This document shows, one piece after another, positions 21,001 through 62,498 of a DNA stretch of 64,000 nucleotides. The translations under genes and the position numbers were made by a program. The notes under the pieces were generated by a model that was given only the letters and a program-made list of their open reading frames with translations, had not been told where the DNA came from and did no database searches. Source of the stretch: Minisyncoccia bacterium (GTDB lineage Bacteria; Patescibacteriota; Minisyncoccia; Moranbacterales; GCA-2747515); NCBI GenBank assembly GCA_041738235.1, contig JBGSQF010000013.1:129583-193582 (forward strand). The letters are read 5' to 3'. Each line of letters opens with the position of its first letter. Position 1 is the first letter of the stretch.

Positions 21001-21046
21001 ACATTTTGTATTAACTCAACTATTTTTTGATAAGAAAGGTCATATG

Positions 21047-21119
21047 AGCCGATGGCCGGAATCGAACCGGCGACCTACACGTTACGAGTGTGTTGCTCTA
21101 CCAGCTGAGCTACATCGGC
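21047..21119 (-). tRNA. tRNA-Thr (anticodon CGU).
   Basis: It folds manually as a cloverleaf. The acceptor stem is GCCGATG/CATCGGC, the D-arm is GCTC..GAGC, and the anticodon loop is CTCGTAA with U33 and A37. The T-arm is GCCGG-TTCGATT-CCGGC. The CCA end is not encoded. Confidence 0.8.
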
Positions 21120-21261: not shown

Positions 21262-21282
21262 AACACGGTTGCCTATTTTTTC

Positions 21283-21658
21283 AAGGTGGGGGAGACGATC
21301 GCTTCAAGAAATGTCTTGGAGAGGAAAGTCCGGACACTTAACTACTGTCAAGTAGTAGTAACAGTAGCGGGCAATTCCCGCACGCCGCAAGGCGCGAGGT
21401 GCGAGCAGAGACGTCTCTTTTTGTAAAAAAAGAGACACCTCCAATAGAATGAGAAATATCATCTATTGTTTCGAGGTGAGCTTGCTGAGTGATCGGCAAG
21501 GTGAAACGGCTAAATCCTTACTGGAGTGCAAGGTCGAGTCCCAAGCAACAAGCTTAGGAAGTACCGCAAAGATCGTATTGGCAACAATACGACAAGATAA
21601 ATGATCGTTAGGAAGGTATAAAGCTTTCTGATACAGAATCCGGCTTATCGCCCACCTT
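21283..21658 (+). ncRNA. rnpB: RNase P RNA, bacterial type A.
   Basis: The P4 halves GAGGAAAGTCCGGAC and ACAGAATCCGGCTTA are present. A GGTGAAACGGC motif is present. The P1 helix pairs AAGGTGGG at the 5' end with CCCACCTT at the 3' end. Confidence 0.85.
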
Positions 21659-21736
21659 GAAAAAGTATGCAATTAGAAAAGGAAGATTGTTTTTGTATCA
21701 AGACTCGTGTTTACCACCCATAATTTCTAGAGAAGT

Positions 21737-58581: not shown

Positions 58582-59018
58582 AATATCCTAAGAGTTATCG
58601 TCGTAAGCATTGCAATAAGAATTGCGAGGAAAAAATTCAGAGCGTTTCGCATAAATGCAAAACGTTTCCCCAGATGAGCCGACTCCAAAAAAATCATCGG
58701 GATCCCAACGGTTGTCCAAGAAAAGATAAATGCCGTCACTACCAACAAACTCACACCCTCCTTCAAAAGCTCTCCCCCAACCACATAACTGGCAATAGGA
58801 ATACCGAAGGAAAAACTCCCAGCAATTGTTCCGATCAGCGGATCAACCAGATAGTTCCCGGTAAAGATCTTTGGATAATACTCCTTAAACAGTGGATTTA
58901 AGATGCTCAACACCAACAACACCCCCATCAAAATCGGCAGGGATGCTTGTATAGATTGAAAAGTTTTTCGAAGCGAGCTTCTTATGTCCTGCATATAAAA
59001 GTCTATTTGTATTCCCAA
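58578..59018 (-). CDS. Predicted permease, N-terminal half-gene (COG0701 / ArsP-like).
   Basis: A 146-aa polytopic protein paired with the 58072..58581 gene. Confidence 0.5.
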   Translation of the reverse strand: MGIQIDFYMQDIRSSLRKTFQSIQASLPILMGVLLVLSILNPLFKEYYPKIFTGNYLVDPLIGTIAGSFSFGIPIASYVVGGELLKEGVSLLVVTAFIFSWTTVGIPMIFLESAHLGKRFAFMRNALNFFLAILIAMLTTITLRIF

Positions 59019-59455
59019 TCTGAATTACCTCCGTATCTTCGCATATATGCGAAAAAATTCGATCTGCTTGCCACAGAAAGTGTTTCGGGATCTATCTGAG
59101 CAATATCCTCCCATTGTATTTCGTCACATTTGTGCGGCTCCATGATCTTTGCTTTGCCAGAAACTAGTCGTGCAATATATGATGGCGAAACCCAATGCTG
59201 GTTCTCCTCCGGAAGAATATGATCTACCACTTCCAAAAGCTCCACCACTTCAATATCGATATCGTGCTCCTCTTTGATTTCCCTTGTTACGGCGTCTTCA
59301 CATTTCTCTCCAAACTTGACACCCCCACCCGGGAAGTCCCACTTTCCCACTTCGTTCCTCACCTGTTTCCCTCACTTGGCTAAAAAAACTTTTCCTTCAT
59401 CATTAAATATCATCGCCCCACACCCCACCCCGATATAATCTTTTCCTTTTATCAT
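59003..59455 (-). pseudogene. NUDIX hydrolase reading frame interrupted by an in-frame TGA at 59372..59374.
   Basis: The upstream segment MIKGKDYIGVGCGAMIFNDEGKVFLAK ends at the TGA. Past it the same frame continues as GKQVRNEVGKWDFPGGGVKFGE...REIKEEHDI, the Nudix box. The TGA occupies the position of the conserved Arg of the LAKRG motif. The ORF track reports only the GTG-initiated downstream part. Confidence 0.55.
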
Positions 59456-59513
59456 AAAATTGCTTTTATAGTATACCTCCTCTCGTATATACGCTGTTAT
59501 GTAATCAGTTACG

Positions 59514-59873
59514 TCACTCATTACGTAACTCTTCGATCGCCATGAGGATCCAATTTCCTCTTAATTTATCTTTCATCCCCACTAAATCTTCATAACTCCA
59601 CCAACGTGCGTCCAGTATCTCATATTCCGGGTAGTGAAGCTCCCCTCCGATAATTTGTGCTTCAAAAGTGCCGACATATTCTATGGTGTCCAGCACAAGA
59701 TCAATACTCAGCTCTTCTTTTATCTCTCGAACAAGCGCCTCTTGGTCACTCTCCCCACTCTCTCTTTTTCCACCCGGAATATAGTAGATATCATTATTTT
59801 TTGAGCGCGTGCTTAAAATATTTCTATCCTTGATAGAGATCCAAGCGAGTTTATCAATATATTGATTATTCAT
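59514..59873 (-). CDS. NUDIX hydrolase (MutT-like).
   Basis: The Nudix box reads GGKRESGESDQEALVREIKEELSI. Confidence 0.8.
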   Translation of the reverse strand: MNNQYIDKLAWISIKDRNILSTRSKNNDIYYIPGGKRESGESDQEALVREIKEELSIDLVLDTIEYVGTFEAQIIGGELHYPEYEILDARWWSYEDLVGMKDKLRGNWILMAIEELRNE

Positions 59874-59938: not shown

Positions 59939-60586
59939 CTATTTTATCTTGAGTACATTCACGACTTTCCCATTGATGACGAAGTTGTCTTCTGAGGTAA
60001 GAAATATAGGTTTGTGCTTGATATCCGTAGACTCCGGCATGAGGACAATATTGTGCCCATCGTGCGAGCGATAGGTTTTGACGGTTGCCAGGCCGTCGAT
60101 AATGACCAACACCTTATCACCCGTTTCATAATTACGAGCGGATTTGTCCACCAGAACAAAATCACCATCCTCTATCGTCTTGCCATTCACCTTAGCCTTG
60201 TTCATAGACGTTCCGGAGATCTGCACCGCAAACACATCACGATTCCGCACGATATTCCTCGAAACTTTAAGATATCCTTCCACGTATTCATCTGCAAAGG
60301 CCAAGGCTGTTCCAGCATTTGCCATGCCTAAAACAGGCACATCCATAAATGTTTCCATTGTGACCCCTTTGAGTTTTATACCTCGATCCTCTGAAGTTCG
60401 TTGTATATACCCCTTCTCCTCTAGTTCATTGAGATAGAGAAAGAAACTGCGAATGCTCTTGAGCTTGAGTCCTAATTTTCCAGCCTCCCCTTGTATCTCT
60501 CGAACTGTAGGCATCTGCTTGTGCTGAGAAAAATACCCCTTGATCGCTTGAAGCACGATCTTTTGTTTTGGTGTGAGCAACTCCAT
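59939..60586 (-). CDS. lexA: LexA repressor.
   Basis: The N-terminus is a winged helix-turn-helix. The C-terminal S24 peptidase domain has the catalytic Ser-Met dyad (ISGTSM) and the catalytic Lys (KHKPIF). Confidence 0.85.
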   Translation of the reverse strand: MELLTPKQKIVLQAIKGYFSQHKQMPTVREIQGEAGKLGLKLKSIRSFFLYLNELEEKGYIQRTSEDRGIKLKGVTMETFMDVPVLGMANAGTALAFADEYVEGYLKVSRNIVRNRDVFAVQISGTSMNKAKVNGKTIEDGDFVLVDKSARNYETGDKVLVIIDGLATVKTYRSHDGHNIVLMPESTDIKHKPIFLTSEDNFVINGKVVNVLKIK

Positions 60587-60600
60587 ATGTTTGTGTGTTT

Positions 60601-60634
60601 ACTTTTATTACATATACTATTACATAGTAAAAGA
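60601..60634. promoter_or_regulatory. Direct repeat TATTACATA-N3-TATTACATA in the lexA promoter region (candidate operator).
   Basis: I read the repeats at 60606..60614 and 60618..60626. They are flanked by an inverted repeat TTTGTGTGT...ACACACAAA (about 60594 and about 60680). Confidence 0.3.
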
Positions 60635-60727
60635 TGTAAGAAATTCTGTCAAGAGATGTATTATGTAAAATTATCCACACACAAAAACACCCTTTTGGGG
60701 CGTTCTTTCAAAAACACGATCGCCTTC

Positions 60728-60838: not shown

Positions 60839-62329
<1,491 letters not shown>

Positions 62330-62498
62330 AATAAATACGATCGTTGCGAGTCGCTTTGTTCGTATCAACAAAAGCGAAAGAATTTCAATTTACATTGAGA
62401 ACTCTCAACAATGTTTTCTGAACTGTGTTCAGATTGTTTTGAATAGACTCTTGTTTTTTTAGTATCTGACCACCGTTACCGGGGTCATCTCCTAAAAA

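Follow-up and report, generated by a model that had tools for sequence, protein, structure and literature searches.

A NUDIX hydrolase gene downstream of lexA, here called NUDIX-C, very probably carries a genuine and recent nonsense mutation, representing strain-specific pseudogenisation under the standard genetic code. We propose that a recent C-to-T transition turned CGA into TGA at the codon for an invariant arginine (Arg28) of this MutT-like gene. Under the standard bacterial code the TGA would be read as a stop, and translation from ATG 59455 would end after 27 residues, before the Nudix box (residues 44–66). Most likely the gene is null, a pseudogene of recent origin. It sits in a cluster of NUDIX paralogs that lies downstream of lexA and varies between strains; a paralog-to-paralog deletion has taken place there in the strain analyzed here, and other lesions in a related strain. 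Throughout, "the window" denotes the whole 64,000-nucleotide stretch of DNA that was analyzed; the features discussed are listed in Table 1.

Table 1 Features of the lexA–NUDIX region, in window coordinates.
Feature	Position	Strand	Remarks
Promoter-like site TTGACA-17-TACTAT upstream of lexA	60624..60652	(-)	Consensus match only
lexA	59939..60586	(-)	Pfam LexA_DNA_bind and Peptidase_S24; heads the gene string
Upstream NUDIX gene, 119 aa	59514..59873	(-)	Deletion hybrid of two paralogs: 5' part from NUDIX-A, 3' part from NUDIX-B
NUDIX hydrolase gene NUDIX-C	59003..59455	(-)	150 codons, interrupted at codon 28; single-frame translation, Pfam match
Codons 1–27 of NUDIX-C	59375..59455	(-)	27-residue peptide; strand 1 and most of strand 2
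In-frame TGA replacing the Arg28 codon	59372..59374	(-)	CGA in related strain L090
Residual 119-codon ORF from GTG (codon 32)	59003..59362	(-)	Called as a stand-alone NUDIX protein (P0002); lacks both N-terminal strands
Two half-size permease-like genes, 146 and 169 aa	58072..59018	(-)	Weak ArsP_1 matches

Read in a single frame from 59455 down to 59003, the minus strand gives MIKGKDYIGVGCGAMIFNDEGKVFLAK-stop-GKQVRNEVGKWDFPGGG..., and the product around codon 28 is MIKGKDYIGVGCGAMIFNDEGKVFLAK-stop-GKQVRNEVGKWDFPGGGVKFGEKCEDAVTREIKEEHDIDIE.... The TGA at 59374..59372 is the only internal stop and there is no frameshift. ORF listing nevertheless splits the region into a 49-aa ORF (59372..59521) and the 119-aa ORF that begins at GTG 59362, the latter being present in both NCBI and Logan. 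When the stop was replaced by Arg, the Pfam NUDIX profile (PF00293) matched residues 11–128, across the stop, with an E-value of 2.7e-19 and a score of 69.9 bits against a cut-off of 21.1, a sequence match that places NUDIX-C in the NUDIX superfamily. Homologs number 1535 at E≤1e-5, and the best intact ones are 77–82% identical and align without gaps over the stop. Because both the Pfam match and the gapless homolog alignments span the stop, a chance juxtaposition of two ORFs is rejected. Downstream of the stop, the Nudix box pattern GX5EX7REUXEEXGU is represented by G44-x5-E50-x7-R58-E59-I60-K61-E62-E63-H64-D65-I66, with D65 in place of the last G, as in all close homologs. NUDIX-C does not have the uninterrupted ORF for a complete alpha/beta/alpha fold, owing to the TGA at codon 28, and is thus a disrupted member of the NUDIX superfamily (a pseudogene) rather than an intact one.

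The residue lost to the stop is strongly conserved. In one alignment all 21 other sequences have Arg in the codon-28 column, in another, of 30 homologs, the residue is likewise invariant, and in homologs of 77–80% identity the codon is AGA. The nearest relative was found through a look-up of the neighboring LexA protein. It is a 3332-bp Logan contig from run SRR35430752 (L090), which encodes a LexA (215 aa) identical to that of the window and shares 94.9% nucleotide identity with the window over the lexA and NUDIX-A region and 90.9% over the interrupted gene. L090 carries an intact, colinear NUDIX-C ortholog at positions 2546–2998 (91% nucleotide identity), in which codon 28 stands in the context GCC AAG CGA GGG AAA, compared with GCC AAG TGA GGG AAA in the window. 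Since L090 has CGA at codon 28 and an intact frame, the lesion is a single C-to-T transition (CGA to TGA). A close relative therefore holds a sense codon one substitution away in an open frame, as is expected where a nonsense mutation has created a pseudogene.

L090 also bears on where the gene begins. Gene callers start the N-terminal fragment at ATG 59521, overlapping the stop of the upstream gene. This 22-codon extension (window 59456–59521) differs from L090 at five positions, and because every one of these differences is non-synonymous the extension looks non-coding; the true start of NUDIX-C is probably ATG 59455. A preliminary description of the window, made from its letters and ORFs, had reported a NUDIX gene starting at ATG 59455 and interrupted by an in-frame TGA with no frameshift, had suggested that a CGA or AGA codon for the conserved Arg before the Nudix box had changed to TGA, and had proposed a comparison with orthologs. 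The single-frame translation and the Pfam match spanning the stop bear out the first of these points and the probable non-coding nature of the extension supports the choice of start. The ortholog comparison returned Arg in all aligned homologs (invariant among 30) and CGA in L090.

We looked for further alleles in several collections. The 30-nt stretch around the codon (GGAAAAGTTTTTYTAGCCAAGNGAGGGAAA) had no matches in JGI metagenome contigs, and exact look-ups of the 49-aa and 146-aa ORFs for other carriers of the TGA allele returned runs SRR28170473 and SRR28170474 only. A scan of GTDB species representatives recovered 80 NUDIX homolog loci, of which the best was 77% identical (a Moraniibacteriota MAG); there was no closer relative among these representatives, from which the window's own genome is also absent. 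Homologs of 77–80% identity (L003 and L005) have a gene context different from that of the window; in L003 the NUDIX gene is followed by an ORF with no relation to the permease-like gene of the window. Close homologs (55–77% identity) occur in Patescibacteria, DPANN archaea (Woesearchaeota, Nanoarchaeia), Nitrospirota, Chlamydiae, Chloroflexota, and others, a scattered taxonomic spread which suggests that the gene is frequently transferred horizontally.

Divergence from L090 indicates that the stop is young. Over 137 colinear sense codons of NUDIX-C there are 28 synonymous and 10 non-synonymous codon differences (dS = 0.51, dN = 0.034, dN/dS = 0.068), and, the stop aside, all family-invariant residues are kept. 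Together, the low dN/dS and the retention of every invariant residue argue for purifying selection over essentially all of the divergence, and hence for a stop that arose late within it. The expected consequence can be read from the AlphaFold2 model of an 82%-identical homolog with the same residue numbering (P0001, pLDDT 95.3), which places strands at residues 9–17 and 23–28, the Nudix helix at 52–64, and more strands after it. Judged against this model, the 27-residue peptide is without the catalytic box and the 119-aa remainder is without the two N-terminal core strands. We infer from this that NUDIX-C has lost its function.

There is a counterpoint to the pseudogene reading, in that the rest of the gene is intact, as a still-functional gene would also show. 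If a near-cognate tRNA read through the UGA at a low but useful rate, some full-length NUDIX protein would be made and the stop would act as an attenuator. UGA is the leakiest of the stop codons, and the absence of a second lesion together with the retention of every invariant residue would fit such leakage. Yet a young pseudogene would be just as likely to have an intact sequence, and several observations make read-through quite improbable. Near-cognate insertion in bacteria is mostly of Trp, which would replace the invariant Arg28. The TGA is not conserved, the nearest relative having CGA. Nor is there a stimulatory structure downstream: an 81-nt segment beginning just before the TGA has a folding energy of -12.3 kcal/mol, where shuffled sequences average -15.3 kcal/mol (z = +1.17), and 182 of the 200 shuffled sequences fold at least as well.

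Reinitiation at GTG 59362 would instead yield a 119-aa, N-terminally truncated NUDIX protein, acting alone or as a split enzyme with the 27-aa peptide. This GTG lies 9 nt after the stop and has GAGGG 6 nt upstream of it, the 3' end of the 16S rRNA carries CCUCC, and the 119-aa ORF is predicted by gene callers. However, the GAGGG belongs to the Arg-Gly codons and recurs in the intact allele, and initiation from a Shine–Dalgarno (SD) motif plus GTG would be atypical for the organism, given that an SD motif was found in 3 of 42 window genes and an ATG start in all 42. The truncated product would moreover be without the core-sheet strands 9–17 and 23–28 of the P0001 model, and among the 120 homologs listed none is naturally this short except the 119-aa ORF itself. 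We therefore consider restart very unlikely. As to initiation in general, the SD motif was scored as GGAG, GAGG, or AGGA located 7–16 nt upstream of the start, the 42 genes were the well-supported ones in the window, and their leaders are A/T-rich. The 16S 3' end (about 60841–60860, minus strand) carries the canonical CCUCC anti-SD sequence. Translation initiation in the window genes appears to be largely SD-independent.

A further possibility concerns selection on the allele. The TGA allele might be maintained through a trickle of read-through or restart product, or selection in a natural patescibacterial population might have favored the loss of a nucleotide-sanitising NUDIX enzyme encoded immediately downstream of lexA, as a mutator or hypomorph allele. 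We see only a slim chance of this. A recent nonsense mutation that has simply inactivated NUDIX-C continues to be the preferred reading.

It is highly improbable that the TGA is a sequencing or assembly error with C as the true base and the gene intact. MAGs can carry consensus errors, but three assemblies (the window and the contigs of two runs) agree base for base over 1.4–1.6 kb, and the change to TGA is a substitution in a context that is not a homopolymer. The two Logan contigs, of 1606 nt from SRR28170473 (L001) and 1450 nt from SRR28170474 (L002), are 100% identical to the window over their full length, TGA included, and both the 119-aa and 49-aa ORFs are found on contigs from both runs. 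The MAG was probably built from the libraries of these two runs, which therefore confirm the base call but do not amount to a second population. From these comparisons an assembly or consensus error specific to the MAG appears unlikely at the TGA. The preliminary description had advised a check of read support at 59372..59374; this was approximated by means of the assemblies, and the independent contigs of the two runs carry the TGA.

Within the window TGA is a normal terminator, and codes 4 and 25 are excluded; the checks of the genetic code cover these 64 kb. Stop codon usage across 73 non-overlapping likely ORFs is TAA 31, TAG 24, and TGA 18. Genes terminated by TGA end where their families do: L9 (rplI) reaches profile position 85 of 86 at residue 145 of 149, a glyoxalase reaches profile position 119 of 121, and an AA_kinase/pyrH-like gene covers positions 1–234 of a 234-position profile. 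Extensions obtained by reading through the stops of TGA-terminated genes with family support measure 5–39 codons, and the single long extension follows a rejected ORF (7–276). Read with code 11, about 20 conserved genes keep their full length and show no in-frame TGA, among them those for PriA, LepA, AspRS, PyrG, GluRS, SHMT, malic enzyme, a MiaB-like radical-SAM enzyme, Fmt, and MsrB-MsrA (MsrAB). When all stops with an open frame on both sides were considered across the 64 kb, no other TGA fell within a homology-supported frame. A candidate second in-frame TGA at 274–276, between ORFs 7–276 and 298–687, was rejected because, by eye, its translation does not resemble a protein. The signature of an alternative code, with many in-frame TGAs at conserved Gly or Trp columns and TGA not serving as terminator, is thus not seen in the window. 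The preliminary description had likewise thought a genome-wide recoding of UGA unlikely on the grounds that TGA ends pyrH normally, which agrees with the full profile coverage of the pyrH-like kinase, and the count of in-frame TGAs in conserved genes that it recommended, run here on 64 kb, found no other homology-supported frame interrupted.

Selenocysteine insertion was rejected as well, there being no SECIS-like element 3' of the UGA and no Cys or Sec in relatives. The preliminary description had named a test for such an element, which it thought unlikely here. An Rfam scan of 58900–59600 at E≤10 gave no matches and folding revealed no downstream hairpin, while the codon-28 position in relatives (30 homologs) is invariably Arg and never Cys or Sec. 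The Patescibacteria lineages Gracilibacteria/JAEDAM01 and SR1 do read UGA as Gly (PMC13293708), and the present case resembles theirs (table 25) in that a gene from a genome of probable patescibacterial origin contains an in-frame UGA. However, that recoding is reported as restricted to the Gracilibacteria/JAEDAM01 (and SR1) lineage and occurs at Gly columns (PMC13293708), whereas here there is a single occurrence at an invariant Arg, in a column that is not Gly, Trp, or Cys, with TGA otherwise serving as terminator at the expected ends of conserved genes and absent from the frames of about 20 conserved proteins. We accordingly attach almost no credence to an alternative code (4 or 25) or to selenocysteine insertion at this UGA.

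The cluster of NUDIX paralogs is decaying and recombining, and the stop in NUDIX-C is one among several lesions that it has acquired independently. The minus-strand string in the window comprises lexA, a NUDIX gene, the interrupted NUDIX gene, and then the two half-size permease-like genes. The string of lexA, NUDIX, interrupted NUDIX, and permease had been recognized in the preliminary description, and its membership stands; the interrupted gene, however, is third in the string and not first as was stated there. The lexA gene scores 112.7 bits against the NCBIfam model TIGR00498 (cut-off 110.95), and consensus matching of the minus strand found no terminator-like sites separating lexA from the NUDIX genes. 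In L090 the gene order is lexA, NUDIX-A (134 aa), a Peptidase_S51 gene, NUDIX-B, intact NUDIX-C, and a purH-like ORF.

Positions 1–1211 of L090 align to window 60862–59655 and positions 2333–2956 to window 59668–59045. The window is without 1121 bp of L090, the Peptidase_S51 gene included (hybrid region L090 993–2451). The junction of the resulting hybrid lies at about 59655–59668, with the crossover in a shared stretch of ~14 nt (CTTTTGARGCAMAA). In L090, NUDIX-B (2088–2451) is itself split into 46-aa and 81-aa ORFs, with a frameshift near an A7 run, and ends earlier, at a TAG where the window has TGG. It is either a second pseudogene or the product of a homopolymer assembly error. Homology between the window and L090 ends within the last ~14 codons of NUDIX-C (window 59045). 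Beyond this breakpoint the window (59003–59045 on) continues into the permease-like genes and L090 (2957–3332) into the purH-like ORF. The family consensus agrees with the C-terminal tail of NUDIX-C in the window but not with that in L090, suggesting that the rearrangement breakpoint at the NUDIX-C tail belongs to L090.

Before its interruption, NUDIX-C would have resembled the MutT/NUDIX pyrophosphohydrolases (PF00293), with which it shares a full NUDIX domain, the Nudix box, and the conserved Arg ending strand 2; it differs from intact members in having its frame broken at codon 28. By sequence, the closest solved structure is 4dyw, a "MutT/NUDIX family protein" (E = 3.7e-21, residues 9–131). 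NUDIX-C scores below every NCBIfam equivalog cut-off, and for this reason no substrate is assigned to it. Identity with the 8-oxo-dGTP diphosphatase MutT (equivalog TIGR00586) was considered and rejected, the score being 59.2 bits against a cut-off of 97.9, and where homologs bear the name "MutT" it comes from source annotation alone.

The stop is an already known kind of event, an ordinary nonsense-mutation pseudogene. As in other bacterial pseudogenes of this type, one transition has converted a sense codon to a stop in a gene that is otherwise intact, the allele of a close relative is unbroken, and neighboring paralogs carry a deletion or frameshift; we find no material difference. For annotation, the region should be treated as one disrupted NUDIX gene and not, as gene callers have it, as a 49-aa hypothetical protein plus a 119-aa "NUDIX protein." With regard to recoding the result is negative, and the TGA in NUDIX-C should not be taken as evidence for stop-codon recoding in the lineage. 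More widely, the locus shows that in a bacterium with a small genome a NUDIX cluster next to lexA is still losing genes and recombining its paralogs, and it has little significance beyond annotation.

Other features of the window were recorded in passing. A complete 16S rRNA gene lies at 60841–62335 on the minus strand (1418.8 bits). No 23S, 5S, or tRNA gene stands beside it on either side within the window, and this lone 16S is consistent with unlinked rRNA genes. The other RNA genes found in the window were two: the class A RNase P RNA at 21282–21663 on the plus strand (119 bits) and a tRNA-Thr(CGU) at 21046–21119 on the minus strand.

The first permease-like gene overlaps the NUDIX-C stop by 16 nt, and the same arrangement is present in the SRR28170474 contig. 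In the ArsP_1 "predicted permease" profile, the N-terminal half alone is matched by both permease-like ORFs, with scores that fall short of the Pfam cut-off; an NCBIfam search of both gave no match. That they represent one frameshifted gene is disfavored, on weak evidence, since they lie in different frames and match the same half of ArsP_1. Judging from these matches, the two ORFs may form a two-gene, half-size permease pair.
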